Position numbers and translations under genes: made by a program. 8,668 nucleotides of DNA from a virus (taxonomy: Duplodnaviria; Heunggongvirae; Uroviricota; Caudoviricetes), in IMG/VR virus record IMGVR_UViG_2740892423_000019; one strand, written 5' to 3'. Positions within the stretch are counted from its first letter, which is position 1. The number at the start of each line of letters is the position of its first letter. The notes under the pieces are model-generated. The model did not search any database, was not told the origin of the DNA, and saw only the letters and a program-made list of their open reading frames with translations. Of the stretch, positions 1-8,668 are shown one piece after another.

Positions 1-1592
<1,592 letters not shown>

Positions 1593-1658: not shown

Positions 1659-2258
1659 ATGCGTAAACTTTATGCCGCCATTTTGTCCGCAGCCATCTGT
1701 CTGGCCGTATCCGGTGCGCCTGCATGGGCGTCTGAACATCAGTCCACGCTGAGCGCGGGCTATCTTCATGCCTCGACGAACGTTCCCGGCAGCGATGATC
1801 TTAACGGGATTAACGTGAAATACCGTTATGAGTTTACGGACACACTGGGGCTGGTGACGTCATTCAGCTATGCAGGAGACAAGAATCGCCAGCTGACCCG
1901 TTACAGCGATACCCGCTGGCATGAAGACTCCGTTCGTAACCGCTGGTTCAGCGTGATGGCGGGGCCGTCTGTACGCGTGAATGAATGGTTCAGCGCGTAT
2001 GCGATGGCGGGTGTGGCTTACAGCCGTGTGTCGACTTTCTCCGGGGATTATCTCCGCGTAACTGACAACAAGGGGAAAACGCACGATGTGCTGACCGGAA
2101 GTGATGACGCTCGCCACAGTAACACGTCTCTGGCGTGGGGAGCTGGCGTGCAGTTTAACCCGACCGAATCGGTGGCCATTGATATTGCTTATGAAGGCTC
2201 CGGCAGTGGTGACTGGCGCACTGACGGTTTCATCATGGGTGTCGGTTATAAATTCTGA
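1659..2258 (+). CDS. lom: Lom outer-membrane protein (Ail/Lom/PagC/OmpX family), lysogenic-conversion gene
   Basis: The 199-aa ORF has a Shine-Dalgarno-like gagagg 7 nt upstream of the ATG and an N-terminal signal peptide (MRKLYAAILSAAICLAVSGAPAWA). The C-terminal motifs INVKYRYE, SVMAGP, AYAMAGVA and IAYEGSGSGDWRTDGFIMGVGYKF match lambda Lom as I recall it. Its position directly after J matches lambda. Confidence 0.92.
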   Translation: MRKLYAAILSAAICLAVSGAPAWASEHQSTLSAGYLHASTNVPGSDDLNGINVKYRYEFTDTLGLVTSFSYAGDKNRQLTRYSDTRWHEDSVRNRWFSVMAGPSVRVNEWFSAYAMAGVAYSRVSTFSGDYLRVTDNKGKTHDVLTGSDDARHSNTSLAWGAGVQFNPTESVAIDIAYEGSGSGDWRTDGFIMGVGYKF

Positions 2259-2311: not shown

Positions 2312-2322
2312 GTGGGGTGAAT

Positions 2323-5300
2323 ATGGCAGTAAAGATTTCAGGTGTACTGAAAGACGGTGCAGGTAAACCGGTACAGAACTGCACAATCCAGCTGAAAGCA
2401 AAACGTAACAGCACCACGGTGGTGGTGAACACGGTGGCATCTGAAAATCCGGATGAAGCCGGGCGTTACAGCATGGATGTTGAGTACGGTCAGTACAGCG
2501 TTATTCTGTTGGTGGAAGGCTTCCCGCCATCGCATGCCGGGACCATCACCGTGTATGAAGACTCACAACCGGGTACGCTGAATGATTTTCTCGGTGCCAT
2601 GACGGAGGATGATGCCCGTCCGGAGGCACTGCGCCGCTTTGAACTGATGGTGGAAGAGGTGGCGCGTAACGCGTCCGCAGTGGCACAGAACACGGCAGCC
2701 GCGAAGAAGTCAGCCAGCGATGCCAGCACATCAGCCCGTGAGGCGGCAACCCATGCGACTGATGCTACAGGCTCAGCACGTGCAGCCAGCACATCAGCCG
2801 GGCAGGCCGCGACGTCGGCTCAGTCAGCGTCTTCCAGCGCAGGAACGGCATCAACAAAGGCTACTGAAGCATCAAAAAGTGCTGCCGCTGCAGAGTCCTC
2901 AAAAAGCGCGGCAGCCACCAGTGCCGGTGCGGCGAAAACGTCAGAAACGAATGCCGCAGCATCACAACAATCAGCAGCCACTTCTGCATCCACCGCGACC
3001 ACGAAAGCGTCAGAAGCTGCCACCTCAGCCCGGGATGCGGCGGCCTCAAAAGAGGCAGCGAAATCATCAGAAACGAACGCATCATCAAGTGCCAGTAGTG
3101 CAGCTTCCTCGGCAACGGCGGCAGGAAATTCCGCGAAGGCCGCAAAAACGTCTGAGACGAATGCGGATAACAGCGCACAGGCGGCAGCAGACTCACAAAC
3201 TGCATCGGCAAACTCCGCGACAGCAGCCAAAAAATCAGAAACCAACGCGAAAAATAGCGAGGCAGCAGCAAAGAGCAGCGAAACCAACGCTAAAGCCAGC
3301 GAAACTAATGCTAAATCCAGTGAAACAAACGCGGCGAAATCTGCGGCGGACGCACTTAATTATCGCAACCAGGCGCAAGTAATTGTTGGCGATAATATCG
3401 GTCTTGGTGAAGTTGCCATGACCTGCACTGATATCTCTGTTGAGCCATCAGGTTATATTGGATTTGTCAGGATTTACATCTCAGCGAAAGGTTATCCATC
3501 AGTAGCGTCTAGTGCCGGTGATAATCTTATTTCTGGTTATATAGTTAGATCAGAAGTGTCAACAAAAAGATATTCCGGTCTATTTGTTGGTTCAGATACA
3601 AAATCATTGTATTCGTACATTTACAGCCAAAGTTCTGGCCCGCAATGGATACGTCATACCCGCAGAGATGAATTAAGCCGCTTTGGTCAAAATGAATCAA
3701 CAACTCGTATGTATGGTCCAACTGGTGATCGTTTCTTTGAAATCCATACTAACGGGAGTTGGGGAGTTTATGATTCTTCTTCTGGACAATGGTCTCCGTT
3801 AGGTTTAGCCCAGGGCGGTACTGGTGGAAGAACTATCGAGCAAGCACGTGCGAACTTGCGGGTAATGTATGAGCAAAAAGCTGGCCTTGCTAATACTGAC
3901 CTAAACACCCTTACCGGTGAATATTCTGGTTTCTATCAACAACCAACGAGCGCTTACGCAACAGAAGAATTAAATTACCCAATCGGTCTGGCGGGCGCTT
4001 TAATAGTGCTCCAAACGAGAGCCAACACTGCTTCTTCCTGCGTTCAGGTGTACTACCCTTATAATAATCCGGGAATTACTTATAGACGAATATATGAAGG
4101 AGGAAGCGGTACCTGGTCTGAATGGAAGAGAGATGTATCAACAGAAAGGGTTGAAGAGGGAAAAGAAACAACTTACGTATATTCTACGTATTCTTCAGGC
4201 GCACCACGCTTACAGGTTTCCAAATCTGGTTTGTGGGGTTGTCATAATGGCACTGGCTGGTTGCCATTAGCTGTTGGGCAAGGAGGTACAGGTGCGACAA
4301 CAGTAGAAGATGCGCGAAACAACTTAAGTCTTGGCGAAAGTAGCGCAGTTAAATTTAAAAACCTTACTTTAACCGAAGCGCTCGACACGACATTAGGACT
4401 GCTTACAAAAACAGGACGAGACTGGAACACGCAGCATACTGATAACATTAATAAATTTATACCAATTGCAGGCAGTACAAACGGCCCGGCAGGTTCTATG
4501 GTTCTTGGCGGCATTCATGTTCAATTTAGTAAAAATTATGCTGTGCAGTTCGGAGGCCGCAATTCCGGTTTTTGGGGAAGAACAATTGAAAATGGAACGA
4601 CGCAGGAATGGAAGAAATTACTAACAGTAGACGATCTCAATTCATCTACCGATCTTGCTGTCAGGTCATTAACCACATCTAACCCGGTAAAATCTGGCGG
4701 AGGGCGAATTGATGTCCTTGGAAGCACGTCAGACTATAGCAAAATGGATTGCTTTGTACGTGGGTTTGATAGCACCGGTAATTCTCTCGCGTGGGCGTTG
4801 GGTTCATCAGTCGGCGTAAGTAAGATGCTGTCGCTAAAAAATTTCTTTAGCGGAGCTGAGATACTGTTAAATGGTAATGACGGCGCGGTTCAACTCAAAA
4901 CAGGTGCTGTTAACGGGGCTAAAGCACAGGCGCTCACTATCAACAAGGATGAGGTTAACTCAACTGTTGATTTAACTCTTACAAAACAAACAGGGACTGG
5001 AAATCGTTTTGTTTTACAGAACTTAGGTAATACAGAACTATCATTTGCCGCAAAAGTATGGGGATCAAGTGATCGACAAAACGTTTTTGAGGTTGGAACG
5101 TCTGCTGCGTATCTGTTTTATGCGCAAAAAACATCAGCAGGCCAGTTGTTTGATGTAAATGGCGCTATTAATTGCACAACGCTGAATCAGTCATCAGACC
5201 GCGACCTTAAAGACGATATTCGCGTTATCAGCGACGCTACGAAAGCAATCCGTAAAATGAACGGGTACACCTACACGCTCAAGGAAAACGGAATGCCTTA

Positions 5301-5628
5301 TGCTGGCGTTATTGCACAGGAAGTAATGGAGGCGATACCTGAAGCTGTGGGATCGTTTACTCATTATGGTGAAGAGTTGCAAGGTCCGACCGTTGACGGC
5401 AACGAGCTACGCGAAGAAACTCGCTATCTTAATGTTGACTACTCCGCCGTGACGGGGTTACTTGTTCAGGTCGCCCGTGAAACAGATGATCGCGTTACCG
5501 CGCTGGAAGAGGAAAATACAACGTTACGTGAAAATCTGGCAACAGCAGGCACCCGGATCACCACTCTGGAAAATCAGGTAAGCGAACTGGTTGCACTTGT
5601 CGGGCAGTTAACAGGAAGCGAACATTGA
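2323..5628 (+). CDS. stf: Side tail fibre protein, mosaic: lambda Stf-like N-terminus, Ala/Ser/Thr-rich shaft, divergent distal region, C-terminal self-cleaving chaperone domain
   Basis: Translation from ATG 2323 begins MAVKISGVLKDGAGKPVQNCTIQLKAKRNSTTVVVNT, which matches the lambda Stf N-terminus as recalled. The ORF track starts at the in-frame GTG 2317, which I regard as an artefact. A GGGG Shine-Dalgarno-like run sits at 2314-2317. The protein has a long low-complexity Ala/Ser/Thr shaft with repeated K(T/S)SETNA units, and two GGTG-x-ARxNL motifs (LGLAQGGTGGRTIEQARANLRV and LPLAVGQGGTGATTVEDARNNLSLG) typical of the phage tail fibre repeat. The gene ends at TGA 5626-5628. Confidence 0.88.
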   Translation: MAVKISGVLKDGAGKPVQNCTIQLKAKRNSTTVVVNTVASENPDEAGRYSMDVEYGQYSVILLVEGFPPSHAGTITVYEDSQPGTLNDFLGAMTEDDARPEALRRFELMVEEVARNASAVAQNTAAAKKSASDASTSAREAATHATDATGSARAASTSAGQAATSAQSASSSAGTASTKATEASKSAAAAESSKSAAATSAGAAKTSETNAAASQQSAATSASTATTKASEAATSARDAAASKEAAKSSETNASSSASSAASSATAAGNSAKAAKTSETNADNSAQAAADSQTASANSATAAKKSETNAKNSEAAAKSSETNAKASETNAKSSETNAAKSAADALNYRNQAQVIVGDNIGLGEVAMTCTDISVEPSGYIGFVRIYISAKGYPSVASSAGDNLISGYIVRSEVSTKRYSGLFVGSDTKSLYSYIYSQSSGPQWIRHTRRDELSRFGQNESTTRMYGPTGDRFFEIHTNGSWGVYDSSSGQWSPLGLAQGGTGGRTIEQARANLRVMYEQKAGLANTDLNTLTGEYSGFYQQPTSAYATEELNYPIGLAGALIVLQTRANTASSCVQVYYPYNNPGITYRRIYEGGSGTWSEWKRDVSTERVEEGKETTYVYSTYSSGAPRLQVSKSGLWGCHNGTGWLPLAVGQGGTGATTVEDARNNLSLGESSAVKFKNLTLTEALDTTLGLLTKTGRDWNTQHTDNINKFIPIAGSTNGPAGSMVLGGIHVQFSKNYAVQFGGRNSGFWGRTIENGTTQEWKKLLTVDDLNSSTDLAVRSLTTSNPVKSGGGRIDVLGSTSDYSKMDCFVRGFDSTGNSLAWALGSSVGVSKMLSLKNFFSGAEILLNGNDGAVQLKTGAVNGAKAQALTINKDEVNSTVDLTLTKQTGTGNRFVLQNLGNTELSFAAKVWGSSDRQNVFEVGTSAAYLFYAQKTSAGQLFDVNGAINCTTLNQSSDRDLKDDIRVISDATKAIRKMNGYTYTLKENGMPYAGVIAQEVMEAIPEAVGSFTHYGEELQGPTVDGNELREETRYLNVDYSAVTGLLVQVARETDDRVTALEEENTTLRENLATAGTRITTLENQVSELVALVGQLTGSEH
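5194..5625 (+). other. C-terminal self-cleaving chaperone domain of Stf (Peptidase S74 / endosialidase-chaperone-like)
   Basis: The motif SSDRDLKDDIRVI has the Ser-Asp-x-x-x-Lys signature of autoproteolytic tail-fibre chaperone domains (phage K1F endosialidase, T5 L-shaped fibre). It is followed by IRKMNGYTYTLKENG and a heptad-like tail, TALEEENTTLRENLATAGTRITTLENQVSELVALVGQL. Predicted cleavage is after the Ser encoded at 5194-5196. The assignment is by motif recall and was not searched. Confidence 0.65.
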
Positions 5629-5679
5629 TATCCTTCAAGCCCTGAAGGAGGCTGTTCCTGGTACGTTCAGACTGTTGTT

Positions 5680-5811
5680 GAGCTGGAAATCGCAACGGAG
5701 GAAGAAACCTTGTTGCTGGAAGTCTGGAAGAAGTATCGGGTGTTGCTGAACCGTGTTGATACATCAACTGCACCTGATATTGAGTGGCCTACGAACCCTG
5801 TCAGGGAGTAA
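5680..5811 (+). pseudogene. tfa: 3' remnant of tail fibre assembly gene tfa (last ~43 codons, no start codon)
   Basis: The segment translates to [43 protein letters not shown], which closely matches the lambda Tfa C-terminus (recalled as ...[37 protein letters not shown]...). It lies in the same frame as stf, directly after the stf TGA, with no ATG, GTG or TTG start and no N-terminal Tfa sequence. Confidence 0.7.
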
Positions 5812-5825
5812 TCATTGGGATTATG

Positions 5826-5858
5826 CCGCAGCACGTCTTAAGCAAGAGCGAGCTGCGG
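5826..5858. repeat. 33-nt palindromic element, copy A (hairpin between the convergent tfa remnant and methyltransferase 3' ends)
   Basis: The sequence is ccgcagcacgtcttaagcaagagcgagctgcgg. An imperfect stem (ccgcagc...gctgcgg) lies 8 nt downstream of the - strand methyltransferase stop codon (5866-5868). It is 33/37 identical, including the flanking ttgg, to copy B at 8526-8558. Confidence 0.5.
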
Positions 5859-5865
5859 TTGGATG

Positions 5866-6534
5866 CTATTTTTTCCCTGAAGCGGAAAACATTACTACAG
5901 TACCTTGAACCTTGGTTTTAACATTCTCGAAATGCTCTGAGAGTATATGTGTTAAGCCTTCTTCGGAATCTTTTGTGTTTGAAAAGATGCCTTTCTGATT
6001 GTAAATGCGCATCAGTTTTTGACCGAAGCTATTGTGCACAACTCCATCGCCAAGAATTGTGGCTCCGTATAGAGTTCCATCGTCAGTTAAGGCCTGCGCC
6101 GCATTGCGTATTACACAGCTTTTTGTAGATATATTTCCAGGCAGGCAGTGAAGAAGGTAAAACATGGAAATGGAATCAAATTGACCATGTAACGCCGCGG
6201 GATAAGGTTCAAAAACATCATGGCTAATTTTATGTTTAATTTTTGATTCCCCAGCCCTTGTAGATGCCGCGTTCAGGCTAGCTTCGTTCAAATCCATTAA
6301 AGATATCAGACTACTCTCAGGTACGTGAGTAAGGTAAAACCCAGTTCCAACACCAATATCCAGATGGTTGTTACCTAAATGTTCCAGAAAGTGTGGAAGA
6401 AGGTGTTCCTTTGTAGGACATCCCCATGCAAGCCGATTTGATACTCCCAAAACCCACCAGTCATAAAGCTTTAGGGTAAGTGGTGTGTAAATTTTAGCCC
6501 CATCATCTGTGTTTTTTTTCATTAATTTCACCAT
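5866..6534 (-). CDS. Class I (Rossmann-fold) SAM-dependent methyltransferase, substrate unknown
   Basis: The 222-aa ORF carries a canonical motif I, HLDIGVGTGFY (hh-D/E-h-G-x-G-x-G), and a downstream acidic motif-II-like LISLMDLNE. GC is around 40%, lower than the phage structural genes. The start is uncertain: ATG at 6534 (MVKLMKK) or ATG at 6522 (MKKNTDD, weak ggtga Shine-Dalgarno-like sequence 6 nt upstream). Confidence 0.72.
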   Translation of the reverse strand: MVKLMKKNTDDGAKIYTPLTLKLYDWWVLGVSNRLAWGCPTKEHLLPHFLEHLGNNHLDIGVGTGFYLTHVPESSLISLMDLNEASLNAASTRAGESKIKHKISHDVFEPYPAALHGQFDSISMFYLLHCLPGNISTKSCVIRNAAQALTDDGTLYGATILGDGVVHNSFGQKLMRIYNQKGIFSNTKDSEEGLTHILSEHFENVKTKVQGTVVMFSASGKK

Positions 6535-6590
6535 GTTATAGTTTTGTTTGTGAATTAAATCAATTATGGTGATGAATTACAAGGGGTTAA

Positions 6591-6860
6591 ATGCTGCCGC
6601 AGCATAGCGATATTGAAATAGCCTGGTATGCTTCGATACAGCAGGAGCCGAATGGCTGGAAGACCGTCACCACATAGTTCTACATCCAGGAATTCAGTGA
6701 GCATATTGCGCCACTTCAGGATGCTGTAGATCTGGAGATCGCAACGGAGGAAGAAAACTCGTTGCTGGAAGCCTGGAAGAAGTATCGGGTGTTGCTGAAC
6801 CGTGTTAATACAACAACTGCACCGGATATTGAATGGCCAACAGGACCCATTATCGAATAG
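6591..6860 (+). pseudogene. Small ORF with a Tfa C-terminal-like domain, interrupted by an in-frame amber codon (TAG 6675-6677)
   Basis: ATG 6591 is preceded by aagggg (Shine-Dalgarno-like). It encodes MLPQHSDIEIAWYASIQQEPNGWKTVTT, then TAG, then in the same frame [60 protein letters not shown]. The second part matches the lambda Tfa C-terminus ([20 protein letters not shown]...[22 protein letters not shown]). No start codon exists after the amber codon. It resembles the small Tfa-C-like proteins of E. coli cryptic prophages (ynaE/ydfK family), from memory and unverified. Confidence 0.5.
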
Positions 6861-6871
6861 TGCATTACGAA

Positions 6872-6904
6872 CTGCAGGATATTATATGGGATAATATTCT
6901 GCAG
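6872..6904. terminator. AT-rich inverted repeat between convergent genes (possible bidirectional terminator)
   Basis: Arms of 14 nt, ctgcaggatattat and ataatattctgcag, carry one mismatch and flank a 5-nt spacer (atggg). The + strand continues with tttatt. The repeat sits between the small ORF stop (6860) and the cyclase stop (6934). Confidence 0.3.
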
Positions 6905-6933
6905 TTTATTGGGGCTGTATTTTAAAAAGGTGT

Positions 6934-8265
6934 TTATTTTGAGTGAGTTATCACCTTGTTTTTTCCGGTTCTTTTGGCTTGATATAACGCTTTATCGGCA
7001 TTGACTAACATTTCAGATGGACTGAGATTATTCTCTTTTGAAGTAAAGCAACCAATACTGACAGTTATTTTCTCAGGTCCATGCGATAATAATTTTTCCG
7101 AGCATTGCTCTTCAATGTTTTTTCTGATTCGCTCTGCAATTGATAGCAAGAGCTTTTGAGTATTACCTTTAATGATAATACCGAACTCCTCACCGCCTAA
7201 GCGCCCTAATATATCCTCTTTCCTGATGGATTTTTTTATTATTCTGGTAACCATTACTATGACTTGATCACCCATATGATGCCCCCATTTGTCATTGATG
7301 CTTTTGAAATTGTCAATATCTAACATTATTACTGAGAAATCATGGTGTTTTGATATATTCTTCAATGAGTCAATAAAGTATCTTCTATTGTATGTATTCG
7401 TTAGTGGATCATGAATTGCCATATGATTAGCATGATTTAATTTCCTGAAAACATAATACATGAGTGTTGAAATGATATAAATCATTGATATCAATTCAAG
7501 AAATTTTGTCATGTACCATGCAGGATGGGATTTATCAATAAAATACAATAAAATTAGATTATTGCATACTGACACTATACTAATAAGTATTATACACAAC
7601 CATATTTTTGAGTAATTACGTATGCTGATGCATGAGCTGATAAGTAATACAAGCCAAAATACTGATATTATTTTGGTGTACACGATATTCCACGTCGACA
7701 AATGACGATTCAGCGAGTATTGTATAATATTAAGACTATATTTTATATTGTCACTGCTTAGATTTTTTGCTACAAACGGAGTAATAAAAAGAATTAATAT
7801 TGACAAAACAACAATTATTATGTTTCTTTTATCTTCTAAAACACTTTTATTTTTAACATTGGTGGAATAAACAGCCAGAAAGATTATAGATATAAAGCTG
7901 AACTGACGGAATAGATAATATATTGCGATATCATTTGATTTCTGATAGATTGTAGATAAATCGTTACCTAACGGAGATAAAGAAATAATAGCCACTTCTA
8001 ATAAATAATACGTGTTGCTCAAAAACGCGAATGAAAGAATTAAGAGATAACTTTGTCTCTGATTAGAAACATAGTAAAGCAATAGAAAAATAAAAATCAT
8101 CAGGTTTATGAAAAAAAGCCCAATAATGAAAACACTATAACTTATTTGTGTTGTTTGTGTTATGTATATTCCATTATTTTCATGCAGTAACAAAAATATA
8201 ATAGAGATGCATGAAAATAAAAAGATGAAGATTTTTATTTTTATAGGTACCTGCTTGATAATCAT
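6934..8265 (-). CDS. Membrane-anchored diguanylate cyclase: N-terminal polytopic membrane domain (MASE-like) plus C-terminal GGDEF domain with GGEEF active site and RxxD I-site
   Basis: The 443-aa ORF has ATG at 8265-8263 with aggtg 5 nt upstream on the - strand. The first ~270 residues are highly hydrophobic, with about 8 predicted transmembrane segments rich in I, L and F. The GGDEF domain motifs are all present: HDPLTNTYNRRYF, MLDIDNFKSINDKWGHHMGDQV, the I-site RKED (7213-7224), and RLGGEEFG with GGEEF at 7183-7197. GC is about 25-30% by hand count on sampled 60-nt lines. The architecture resembles E. coli YcdT/DgcT-type cyclases and possibly the prophage-associated DgcX reported in some pathogenic E. 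coli; both comparisons are from memory. Confidence 0.9.
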   Translation of the reverse strand: MIIKQVPIKIKIFIFLFSCISIIFLLLHENNGIYITQTTQISYSVFIIGLFFINLMIFIFLLLYYVSNQRQSYLLILSFAFLSNTYYLLEVAIISLSPLGNDLSTIYQKSNDIAIYYLFRQFSFISIIFLAVYSTNVKNKSVLEDKRNIIIVVLSILILFITPFVAKNLSSDNIKYSLNIIQYSLNRHLSTWNIVYTKIISVFWLVLLISSCISIRNYSKIWLCIILISIVSVCNNLILLYFIDKSHPAWYMTKFLELISMIYIISTLMYYVFRKLNHANHMAIHDPLTNTYNRRYFIDSLKNISKHHDFSVIMLDIDNFKSINDKWGHHMGDQVIVMVTRIIKKSIRKEDILGRLGGEEFGIIIKGNTQKLLLSIAERIRKNIEEQCSEKLLSHGPEKITVSIGCFTSKENNLSPSEMLVNADKALYQAKRTGKNKVITHSK

Positions 8266-8337
8266 GTACGCACCTGAGAATGATATATATATAATATGTA
8301 TCGCTACAAATAACGATAATTTCTTACTGGTGATAGT

Positions 8338-8366
8338 ATACTATTATTCTGGTTAATCGCTGTCAA
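8338..8366 (-). promoter_or_regulatory. Candidate sigma70 promoter for the diguanylate cyclase
   Basis: On the - strand there is a perfect -35 TTGACA (plus-strand tgtcaa, 8361-8366), a 17-nt spacer, and a -10-like TAGTAT (plus-strand atacta, 8338-8343), about 70 nt upstream of the ATG. This is a hand prediction in an AT-rich region where chance matches are common. Confidence 0.25.
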
Positions 8367-8525
8367 ATTGATGATTTTGGTTAGTATTGCAATAGCGAAG
8401 AGTTTGATCCGGTAAGACTGGCTAGGCAAGGCTATACCAAAAAATCAGTGTAGGTTCAGAAAACGATGCACCATACAATCATCAATAATTTCAAATTGTC
8501 CATTGTGCATAAATCATAAAGAAAA

Positions 8526-8558
8526 CCGCAGCACGTCGTATGCAAGAACGTGCTGCGG
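8526..8558 (-). terminator. 33-nt palindromic element, copy B; on the - strand a hairpin followed by a T-rich tract (terminator candidate for a gene entering from the right edge)
   Basis: The sequence is ccgcagcacgtcgtatgcaagaacgtgctgcgg, with a perfect 11-bp stem (ccgcagcacgt / acgtgctgcgg) and an 11-nt loop. On the - strand the stem is followed by ttttctttatg. Reverse-strand frames at 8587-8668 remain open to the window edge, consistent with the 3' end of a - strand gene. Confidence 0.4.
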
Positions 8559-8668
8559 TTGGCTGGTGAACTTTCTGGATTTGCCCCTATATTTCCAGAC
8601 ATCTGTTATCACTTAACCCATTACAAGCCCGCTGCCGCAGATATTCCCGTGGCGAGCGATAACCCAGC

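Follow-up and report, generated by a model that had tools for sequence, protein, structure and literature searches.

The stretch of DNA analysed here (hereafter the window; 8,668 nucleotides, IMG/VR virus record IMGVR_UViG_2740892423_000019) carries a gene that, judged from its sequence, is the known dgcX of E. coli. It is a rediscovery and not a new finding, since 440 of the 443 encoded amino acids are identical to published DgcX. At a probability of about 90%, dgcX encodes an inner-membrane diguanylate cyclase that is carried as a self-contained moron of a lambda-like prophage, is independently transcribed and raises c-di-GMP capacity.

Richter et al. (2014; PMC4287979) published DgcX as a c-di-GMP synthase associated with prophages in E. 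coli; it was first described in the 2011 O104:H4 outbreak strain. To this picture we add that, in relatives without the interruption seen in the window, dgcX lies within an att-bounded prophage and not merely adjacent to one, that it is part of a discrete cassette linked to the tail-fibre-assembly gene (tfa), and that the equivalent slot of other prophages holds diverged alleles. Some of these context details may already be contained in the genome comparison by Povolotsky and Hengge (J Bacteriol, 2016). The gene is present in 771 of 5,426 complete E. coli genomes (about 14%), and its location and mobility therefore bear on the evolution of biofilm formation and pathotypes. Clinical and ecological interest stems from the proposal that DgcX contributed to making the 2011 O104:H4 outbreak strain strongly adherent, curli-expressing and virulent.

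The window encodes DgcX

The dgcX open reading frame comprises 1,332 bases on the minus strand. An earlier note on this DNA had extended the gene to position 8366; the start codon is located at 8265, and 8266-8366 hold the 5' leader and a promoter-like site whose -35 element starts at 8366. Profile searches identified a GGDEF domain (Pfam PF00990, residues 283-437, 152.7 bits against a cut-off of 23.8, E 9.5e-45), which also matches TIGR00254 (163.9 bits, cut-off 37.4), and a MASE4 domain (PF17158, 122.9 bits, cut-off 28.4, E 1.8e-35, residues 40-274, covering profile positions 4-237 of 239). An open reading frame of this length in DNA of 30% GC with such profile scores is not a chance feature. 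Compared with DgcX of the O104:H4-like strain FDAARGOS_401 (Georgia), the protein differs by three substitutions (K4N, I194T and K245Q; 99% identity).

Translation of the minus strand of 7183-7224 yields RKEDILGRLGGEEF, in which R348-K-E-D351 is followed by ILGRL and G357-G-E-E-F361, confirming both an intact GGEEF motif and an RxxD inhibitory site (I-site) five residues ahead of it, as previously read from the letters. PleD is the reference for diguanylate cyclases in which the roles of the metal-, GTP- and I-site residues are established. Alignment with PleD (1w25) places D316, K321, N324, D333, E359, E360 and K431 of DgcX at D327, K332, N335, D344, E370, E371 and K442, while K435 occupies the column of R446. 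The I-site residues R348, D351 and R379 correspond to R359, D362 and R390, the last being a secondary I-site residue. These catalytic and I-site columns are invariant or nearly so across 18 family members.

The AlphaFold2 model (mean pLDDT 85, pTM 0.69) contains eight long helices N-terminal to the GGDEF fold (residues 8-27, 40-67, 72-96, 103-135, 142-168, 194-214, 220-241 and 249-284), and the hydropathy peaks are consistent with them. Together with the MASE4 match, this substantiates the membrane sensor of about eight helices suggested at first reading.

The A-site, the I-site, the eight helices and the prophage adjacency of DgcX were already reported by Richter et al. (2014; PMC4287979). 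Length, GGEEF, RxxD and the eight membrane helices are the same in the published protein and the window copy: the reference DgcX (CAU96679.1) has 443 amino acids (PMC12355678), and the numbering of the published E359A/E360A mutants (PMC10459773) agrees with GGEEF at residues 357-361. Overexpression of DgcX leads to cellulose production, and a 94% identical allele loses its cellulose/rdar phenotype in the GGEAF and GGAAF mutants. Deletion of dgcX in strain Fec101 had a minor effect only.

The conserved residues and the motif-dependent phenotypes of the 94% identical allele suggest how DgcX would work. The eight-helix MASE4 input domain would be connected through a long stalk helix to a cytoplasmic GGDEF domain, which would convert two GTP to c-di-GMP and be feedback-inhibited through the RxxD I-site. 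DgcX might instead lack catalytic activity and serve as a receptor for c-di-GMP or as a scaffold, in the manner of its paralog CdgI (YeaI), and the DgcX literature searched contains no direct enzymology and no direct c-di-GMP measurement (the paper on the 94% identical allele is without LC-MS). However, GGEEF and the catalytic positions aligned with PleD are intact, and the phenotypes of the 94% identical allele require the GGEEF glutamates; a silent DgcX is thus very improbable.

DgcX and its chromosomal paralogs

DgcT (YcdT) and CdgI (YeaI) of K-12 are chromosomal paralogs with the same MASE4-GGDEF architecture. DgcT is 37% identical to DgcX across 408 residues. Both paralogs are encoded at core-chromosome loci and not in prophages, dgcT beside pgaA and cdgI in yeaG-yeaH-yeaI-yeaJ; relatives from Citrobacter with 41% identity to DgcX occupy the yeaI position. 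Whereas GGEEF is intact in DgcX, the active site of CdgI is degenerate according to the literature, and published expression is very weak for dgcT but very strong for dgcX (PMC4287979).

Genes of sequenced phages also encode GGDEF domains, for example in Bacillus phage SP-15 and several PHROG families. The GGDEF domain of DgcX matches phrog_5594 (E 1.5e-65) and genes from phage records at 26-40% identity. In contrast to DgcX, these matches span the GGDEF half only; none has a MASE4 domain or is closely related to DgcX.

Gene neighbourhood and expression signals

Tail genes and a second cargo gene lie at lower window positions than dgcX (Table 1). The distance of about 1.3 kb between the side tail fibre gene and dgcX given in the earlier note is correct, but the interval is not empty, as a methyltransferase gene is located there between two tfa fragments. 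This gene is 96-97% identical at the DNA level to genes in the isolated phages 2G7b, ev243 and PhiR26_1, and is labelled YbcY in PhiR26_1. The dgcX gene follows a methyltransferase gene and a tfa fragment here, whereas the published DgcX context has an intact tfa.

Table 1. Features of the window (positions in the 8,668-nucleotide stretch; "." marks features given without a strand).
Feature	Position	Strand	Evidence
gene J, 3' part, lambda-type tail tip; start lies upstream of the window	30..1592	+	Pfam Ig_J, Ig_J_second, Phage_Tail_Tip, Ig_GpJ_C; gpJ annotation in related genomes
lom, Ail/Lom outer-membrane protein, classical lambda cargo	1659..2258	+	Pfam Ail_Lom, E 3.2e-120, full length
stf, side tail fibre with C-terminal S74 intramolecular chaperone domain	2317..5628	+	Pfam phage_tail_N (residues 3-136), Peptidase_S74 (960-1011)
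tfa 3' fragment A, pseudogene remnant	5677..5811	+	PHROG tail fibre assembly, E 1e-12 to 5e-20; incomplete tfa in RefSeq relatives
degenerate copy of the GC-rich boundary hairpin, abutting the methyltransferase 3' end	5826..5865	.	85% match to HK97 (L010 3511-3551); sequence read
class I SAM-dependent methyltransferase, second cargo gene	5866..6534	-	Pfam Methyltransf_12/23/25; phrog_2132, E 7.9e-157, full length
tfa 3' fragment B, left end of the conserved dgcX cassette	6684..6860	+	PHROG tail fibre assembly, up to E 4e-31; cassette homology begins here in L004, L021 and L023
17-bp inverted repeat, terminator candidate between the converging tfa fragment and dgcX	6870..6907	.	RNA fold; invariant at four loci
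dgcX, MASE4-GGDEF diguanylate cyclase, 443 aa	6934..8265	-	ORF, Pfam, TIGR00254, 440/443 to DgcX
GGDEF catalytic domain, residues 283-437; GGEEF 7183-7197, RxxD 7213-7224	6955..7419	-	Pfam, PleD alignment, translation
MASE4 membrane domain core, Pfam residues 40-274; eight helices within residues 8-284	7444..8148	-	Pfam, hydropathy, AlphaFold2
promoter-like site TTGACA-17 nt-TAGTAT, about 73 nt upstream of the dgcX ATG	8338..8366	-	10/12 consensus match only, best of the region
GC-rich hairpin followed by UUUUCUUU (minus strand); candidate leftward terminator, upstream cassette boundary	8526..8565	-	fold -24.9 kcal/mol, z -4.2; common to HK97
IS2 end, inserted 310 bp upstream of the dgcX start codon	8576..8668	- (presumed)	homology to uninterrupted relatives ends at 8575

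The promoter and the flanking hairpin terminators of dgcX are predictions from consensus matching or folding. AGGTG is found 6 nt before the ATG. The inverted repeat downstream of dgcX folds at -22.1 kcal/mol on the plus strand (z -4.4) and at -15 kcal/mol on the minus strand (z -5.8), and the hairpin upstream of the gene is 95% identical to HK97 20936-20996 and recurs at other cargo-slot borders. An automatic terminator scan of 5600-8668 found nothing; it missed both hairpins because of its loop limit of 8 nt, and direct folding was used instead.

In phage-free W3110, a single-copy lacZ fusion of dgcX was the strongest among all E. coli cyclase genes (PMC4287979). If the predicted signals hold, transcription of dgcX in a lysogen would be independent of phage late transcription, and a lysogen with dgcX would have a greater capacity for c-di-GMP and biofilm matrix.

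In uninterrupted relatives, dgcX is located inside an att-bounded prophage

In published work, dgcX is placed "adjacent to" prophages or described as "not part of a mobile element". We compared the window with relatives in which the region upstream of dgcX is uninterrupted. In these relatives, the lambda att core GCTTTTTTATACTAA sits between dgcX and the host gene ybhB, and about 310 of the approximately 390 bases before the core are 95-97% identical to the attP-proximal region of phage HK97. An att core and HK97-like attP-proximal DNA on the host side of dgcX place the gene inside an att-bounded prophage, in line with the earlier proposal that it is horizontally acquired phage cargo and not host-native. 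The arrangement dgcX-attR-ybhB was found in 585 genomes, and 670 genomes contain a gene with at least 99% DNA identity to dgcX of the window. Relatives with the identical cassette share the published position of DgcX, beside ybhB at the lambda attachment site. Carriers listed by Richter et al. (2014; PMC4287979) are EAEC/STEC O104:H4, EAEC 55989, ETEC H10407/E24377A and the commensal SE11.

The gene is part of a cassette of about 1.9 kb, which begins at the tfa 3' end, takes in dgcX together with its promoter region and ends at the GC-rich hairpin. This cassette (L002 13085-15030) recurs with 82-99% DNA identity in four further chromosomal contexts (L003, L021, L023 and L034), and one of its prophage contexts is of the myovirus type. 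Cassette loci include lambda attB, argW, torT and a bluR-side locus, and the cassette invariably retains both the phage hairpin and the 3' end of tfa. HK97 represents the empty site: here the tfa stop codon is followed by 124 nt and the hairpin, while in the window dgcX and its promoter region intervene. Comparison with other genomes shows that an insert of about 1.65 kb, which contains dgcX and its own promoter-like site on the strand opposite to the late genes, is located between the tfa 3' end and the GC-rich hairpin found ahead of sib/attP in HK97 and similar phages.

The same slot is used by other cargo. The isolated phages 2G7b and PhiR26_1, which share the methyltransferase gene with the window, hold an alpha/beta hydrolase and an omptin gene on the minus strand in place of dgcX, which supports the tail-fibre hotspot named in the earlier note. 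The dgcX gene lies on the strand opposite to the tail genes and converges on them. Classical lambdoid cargo includes lom, appY-ompT at the end of DLP12 and the effector loci of the Sp prophages. Like classical lambdoid morons, dgcX forms a (predicted) independent transcription unit with deviating base composition, and it separates sequences that adjoin each other in the related phage HK97. Its payload is different: a second-messenger synthase, compared to a surface protein, a regulator or a secreted effector in classical morons.

An alternative is that dgcX is host or island DNA which merely lies beside prophages and spreads by specialised transduction, as suggested by Richter et al. This view agrees with the published placement next to, and not in, mobile elements, and with the lack of an isolated phage genome carrying dgcX: a search of 50,697 sequenced phage records gave no DNA match (sensitivity about 65%), and the protein matches were GGDEF-only with less than 40% identity. 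Packaging or transfer of dgcX by a live phage is thus hypothetical, although absence from this collection is not proof of absence in nature. Matches to dgcX in IMG/VR comprise 17 contigs that are short and predicted to be viral; two come from metagenomes. Three of six inspected carrier prophages are visibly decayed (042, ET846 and RMDEC332), the last having IS621 within the capsid gene and an internal stop in one packaging gene. In strain MB53 (NZ_CP073939.1), the carrier prophage has a tail region that seems complete. In addition, a paralog with 67% identity lies beside ybcH-nfrA-nfrB and in some strains leads directly into folD with no phage genes near; an old capture could have drawn on this chromosomal gene. 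Against an origin as neighbouring host DNA stand the att core and the approximately 310 HK97-like bases on the host side of dgcX, as well as the tfa 3' end and the phage hairpin that travel with the gene at the lambda attB, argW, torT and bluR-side loci. We also searched for dgcX at a prophage-free locus, which the earlier note had named as the observation that would make the gene host-native. A joined ybhC-to-dgcX match (at least 80% of the test query covered) was present in only 3 of 5,426 genomes, and the single inspected case, ET846, retains an integrase, an IS1 element and tail-fibre fragments. We consider it improbable that dgcX is host DNA beside prophages, and prefer its reading as prophage cargo.

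An IS2 insertion interrupts the prophage end

No lambda att core was detected in the window, allowing up to two mismatches, because IS2 interrupts the sequence at 8576 and removes the expected phage sib/attR region. The window ends inside IS2 before any att site is reached, while the identical cassette adjoins attR-ybhB in the closest relatives. The bases at 8576-8668 match loci annotated as "IS3-like element IS2 family transposase" in thousands of genomes; their minus orientation is presumed from the IS2 end sequence.

This IS2 junction, 310 bp upstream of dgcX, distinguishes the window from the published DgcX context and occurs in none of the 5,426 complete E. coli genomes. A second IMG/VR contig (L026) matches window 6500-8594 at 100% identity. 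As it starts at window position 8594, 19 bases beyond the junction at 8575/8576, it contains the same IS2 junction. IS2 is located just outside the hairpin and probably leaves the expression of dgcX unchanged.

Base composition and origin

The base composition of dgcX departs from that of the neighbouring phage genes, 29.6% versus 48-56% GC (J 53.0%, lom 55.5%, stf 48.3%). The strong AT-richness reported in the earlier note is thus correct, but the 55-65% GC it assigned to the structural genes is too high; the window reaches 62-65% only across its first approximately 450 bases. Within dgcX, GC content is 26.8% in the MASE4 part and 34.4% in the GGDEF part, and all codon positions are at 27-31%. 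A low-GC donor beyond the enterobacteria was considered and rejected: all full-length relatives with a named source are from Escherichia or Citrobacter. The AT bias is partly a trait of the family, since the paralog dgcT is also AT-rich (38.6% GC), and does not point to a particular donor.

Possible history and role of the gene family

It is possible, though in our view not the likelier case, that MASE4-GGDEF genes of the DgcX type form an old lineage carried by phages, as opposed to a gene that hitchhiked a single time. Alleles ranging from 99% to about 51% protein identity all converge on tfa and lie just after it. Lambda-like prophages show this arrangement at four or more integration sites, as does one baseplate-bearing prophage of the myovirus type, and the GC-rich hairpin borders the dgcX cassette wherever the DNA is conserved, as well as two diverged paralog loci. 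For these diverged paralogs the name "DgcY" was considered and rejected: the listed DgcY has 349 amino acids and is therefore a different protein.

The family is persistently tied to tail-fibre modules of differing prophage types, which could mean that the cargo is selected mainly for phage-phage or phage-host conflict through matrix, motility or receptor glycans, with biofilm and virulence being secondary. Published work shows that the c-di-GMP level controls infection by phage N4 through NfrB, and the 67% identical paralog adjoins nfrB-nfrA-ybcH. However, the documented effect is the opposite of protection: N4 infection requires c-di-GMP, so that more c-di-GMP should sensitise the cell. The dgcX gene is moreover intact in decayed prophages, which fits a benefit for the host. 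A main role in conflict is accordingly unlikely in our view. Defence against superinfection by the cyclase is unsupported, the c-di-GMP requirement of N4 being the only relevant data found.

Returning to an old phage-borne lineage, the intact dgcX in decaying prophages would then reflect selection on host or prophage for c-di-GMP input. A chromosomal gene next to the c-di-GMP-dependent glycan locus nfrB-nfrA-ybcH, at the end of the DLP12 prophage, may have given rise to this lineage.

An intact MASE4-GGDEF cyclase known as dgcX

The window corresponds to the right end of a lambda-like prophage (see table for its features). Residues 40-274 of DgcX match MASE4 (122.9 bits) and residues 283-437 match GGDEF (152.7 bits), both far over the Pfam cut-offs; TIGR00254 also matches. 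Residues 348-361 read RKEDILGRLGGEEF, an RxxD motif followed after exactly five residues by an intact GGEEF. In an alignment with PleD (1w25), D316, K321, N324 and D333 of DgcX correspond to D327, K332, N335 and D344, and E359, E360 and K431 to E370, E371 and K442, with K435 at the position of R446; the I-site residues R348, D351 and R379 are located at PleD R359, D362 and R390. The aligned catalytic and I-site columns are invariant or nearly so in 18 family members. In the AlphaFold2 model (mean pLDDT 85) the membrane domain has eight long helices, with a short beta hairpin (181-192) in the loop that connects helices 5 and 6; the last helix (249-284) continues as a stalk that leads to the GGDEF fold. 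The helix count agrees with a 2014 report, whereas SMART gave six in a 2023 paper.

These data bear out three claims of an earlier note made from the sequence alone, namely an intact GGEEF active site, an RxxD site at canonical spacing and an eight-helix membrane sensor domain. The gene had been placed at 6934-8366; the start of this interval holds, but coding ends at 8265, and 8266-8366 comprise the leader and a promoter-like site. With 29.6% GC dgcX is AT-rich as claimed, but the tail genes are at about 48-56% (J 53.0%, lom 55.5%, stf 48.3%) instead of 55-65%. The gene does lie ~1.3 kb past the side tail fibre gene, but the gap holds another cargo gene and dgcX converges on the tail genes. 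Overall, the sequence had been read correctly and the conclusion was right, but the gene is dgcX, already known and well described.

The window protein shares 440 of 443 residues with its counterpart in strain FDAARGOS_401, which is from Georgia and shows the O104:H4-type arrangement. The gene was named in the 2011 outbreak strain by Richter et al. (2014; PMC4287979), who described an intact A-site with the I-site five residues upstream, an N-terminal domain of ~270 residues and eight helices common to YcdT and YeaI, and a location adjoining lambdoid prophage DNA at the lambda attachment site. In a single-copy lacZ fusion, expression of dgcX exceeded that of all other E. coli cyclase genes, with contributions from sigma-70 and RpoS (PMC4287979). 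Overexpression of the Fec101 allele resulted in a cellulose-dependent colony morphology; this effect was lost in GGEAF (E360A) and GGAAF (E359A/E360A) mutants, and the effect of deleting dgcX was only minor (Cimdins-Ahne et al., 2023; PMC10459773). The residue numbering of these mutants fits the window protein, and the allele of SCU-113, at the argW-dsdC location of Fec101, is 94% identical to it. A direct c-di-GMP measurement was not found in the available parts of PMC4287979 or PMC10459773.

Features of the window and hairpin copies in comparison loci
Feature	Position	Strand	Remark
Tail tip gene J, 3' part	window 30-1592		
lom	window 1659-2258		
Side tail fibre gene (stf)	window 2317-5628		C-terminal S74 chaperone domain
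Tail-fibre-assembly (tfa) fragment, first	window 5677-5811		
Degenerate hairpin copy	window 5826-5865		abuts methyltransferase
Class I methyltransferase	window 5866-6534	-	phrog_2132, E 7.9e-157; labelled YbcY in phage PhiR26_1
tfa fragment, second	window 6684-6860		
17-bp inverted repeat	window 6870-6907		between dgcX 3' end and converging tfa fragment
dgcX	window 6934-8265	-	
Promoter-like site (predicted only)	window 8366-8338	-	TTGACA-17 nt-TAGTAT
GC-rich hairpin	window 8526-8565	-	
IS2 element end	window 8576-8668		last 93 bases
Hairpin copy, HK97	L010 3511-3551		
Hairpin copies flanking paralog	L016 5088-5160, 7629-7670		
Hairpin copies flanking paralog	L024 5097-5150, 8595-8670		

The stf gene, especially at window 2700-3400, contains an Ala/Ser/Thr-rich repetitive stretch with SETNAK-type repeats, from which long spurious ORFs in other frames arise.

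dgcX is located inside the prophage, in a cargo slot

The literature is hesitant as to whether dgcX is phage cargo or a neighbour of the prophage, and "hitchhiking" through specialised transduction was suggested in 2014 (PMC4287979). Our sequence comparisons favour true phage cargo. Strains 042 and MB53 have the lambda att core GCTTTTTTATACTAA ~640 bp past the dgcX start codon, directly ahead of host ybhB, and ~310 of the ~390 bases preceding the core are 95-97% identical to an HK97 segment that runs from 124 nt past tfa over the annotated sib site up to the att core. Since the att core and HK97-like DNA are found beyond dgcX, the gene is inside the att-bounded element, at the position of the b region of lambda. 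HK97 represents the empty site: its tfa stop is separated from the hairpin segment by 124 nt, whereas in the window dgcX and its promoter region lie in between.

A cassette that extends from the tfa 3' end over the 17-bp inverted repeat, dgcX, its promoter region and the GC-rich hairpin to ~60 nt further on is kept as a block, with DNA identities of 82-99%, in four more chromosomal contexts (L003, L021, L023, L034), namely between argW and dsdC, beside torT, next to a J-lom-stf-tfa prophage beyond bluR and on a metagenomic viral contig. Its coordinates are 6684-8575 in the window and 13085-15030 in L002. The cassette thus moves as a unit. Beside torT, an 85% identical allele (L021, L022; gene 6001-7332) has a tfa-dgcX spacing of ~75 nt as in the window, and the neighbouring prophage has baseplate-J, wedge and sheath-initiator genes; therefore, the cassette is not limited to lambda-like phages.

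A second cargo unit (window 5677-6860) consists of the methyltransferase gene flanked by two tfa 3' fragments. Methyltransferase and tfa fragments are present at 96-97% identity in the isolated phages 2G7b, ev243 and PhiR26_1, which differ in carrying an alpha/beta hydrolase and an omptin gene (minus strand) in place of dgcX. Judged from these alignments, the site after tfa is a cargo slot. The self-cleaving S74 domain of stf may explain why tfa downstream survives as fragments only.

We searched for a prophage-free dgcX locus, as a host-native gene could show, with a query in which K-12 DNA from the ybhC side was fused to the dgcX-att segment, requiring at least 80% coverage. Joined matches were obtained in only three of 5,426 complete E. 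coli genomes; in ET846, the one inspected, an integrase, IS1, a tail-protein fragment and a tfa fragment are still in between. On this evidence the search does not refute the earlier reading of dgcX as phage cargo, not host-native, and the comparisons support it. What the analysis adds is context only, namely the location within the prophage, the cassette boundaries, the empty-site comparator, the diverged alleles in the slot and the private IS2 insertion of this copy.

Promoter region, hairpins and IS2 insertion

The tabulated promoter-like site is the best in the region, and AGGTG is found 6 nt ahead of the dgcX ATG. The GC-rich hairpin (14 bp, with UUUUCUUU after it on the minus strand; predicted -24.9 kcal/mol, z -4.2), which lies ~160 nt upstream from the -35, would, as a predicted structure, block leftward transcription from the att side. 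The same hairpin (ccgcagcacg...cgtgctgcgg) also borders post-tfa cargo slots in various prophages and in HK97, and may be both a leftward terminator and a recombination boundary for cargo exchange.

Homology of every uninterrupted relative stops at 8575; from there on, the window matches loci of IS2 transposases in thousands of genomes. IS2 is inserted at 8576, 310 bp upstream of the dgcX start codon and just beyond the hairpin, and replaces the expected sib/attR. Because outward transcription from IS2 should reach the hairpin first, little effect on dgcX is expected. The junction was detected in none of the 5,426 complete E. coli genomes. Window 6500-8594 is matched at 100% identity by the IMG/VR contig UViG_2648501669_000018 (L026), which begins within IS2, 19 bases from the insertion point; the contig thus has the same junction and is probably of the same lineage.

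Distribution of dgcX and state of its prophages

dgcX matches were present in 771 of the 5,426 genomes (14%), 670 of them with at least 99% DNA identity and 86 with 90-95% (a ~94.5% allele is among the matches listed). The dgcX-attR-ybhB arrangement was found in 585 genomes, and methyltransferase and dgcX arranged as in the window in 190. The gene is not universally maintained, since IS1 splits it in at least two complete genomes, H4 (NZ_CM136147.1) and H189 (NZ_LS483297.1).

None of 50,697 sequenced phage records contained dgcX, and the 17 IMG/VR loci with the gene are short contigs predicted to be viral, of which two are metagenomic. RMDEC332 is the closest complete genome (97.8% identity over 95% of the window length); in its prophage (L043 1603-9851) the major capsid gene is interrupted by IS621 and a packaging gene contains an internal stop. 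Most tail genes are missing from the prophage of strain 042, and that of ET846 has shrunk to integrase-IS1-tail fragments of a few kilobases. Prophages with dgcX are thus often defective. In all three decayed prophages dgcX is intact, which is consistent with host-level selection for the cargo.

The wider DgcX family

All full-length DgcX relatives with a named source are from Escherichia or Citrobacter. Alleles with 85%, 81%, 52% and 51% protein identity are each located downstream of a tfa gene or fragment on the opposite strand, directly adjacent for the first two and one to three genes off for the others. The 51% allele lies between uspF and ynaE/pinR, which in K-12 gene order is the Rac prophage end. 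These loci, which are a sample, suggest that this cyclase clade has long been linked to tail-fibre modules; the observations may in part be contained in a 2016 comparative paper.

A 67% paralog (L013, L014, L015; gene 6001-7335) directly follows nfrB-nfrA-ybcH on the same strand. In one genome it adjoins omptin, AraC-family and methyltransferase genes, the order of the K-12 DLP12 right end; in two assemblies folD is next, without prophage genes between. The nfrB-nfrA-ybcH locus is a c-di-GMP-dependent glycan system required for phage N4 infection, and the paralog could be its dedicated cyclase or the chromosomal source of dgcX. Citrobacter relatives with ~41% identity occupy the yeaI position, and K-12 DgcT is 37% identical to DgcX.

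In E. albertii, a metallo-beta-lactamase-fold gene is present between the 52% paralog and tfa (L024 7533-8336; L025 2793-3665). It faintly matches the anti-Pycsar Apyc1 family, whose members are phage proteins that degrade cyclic nucleotides.
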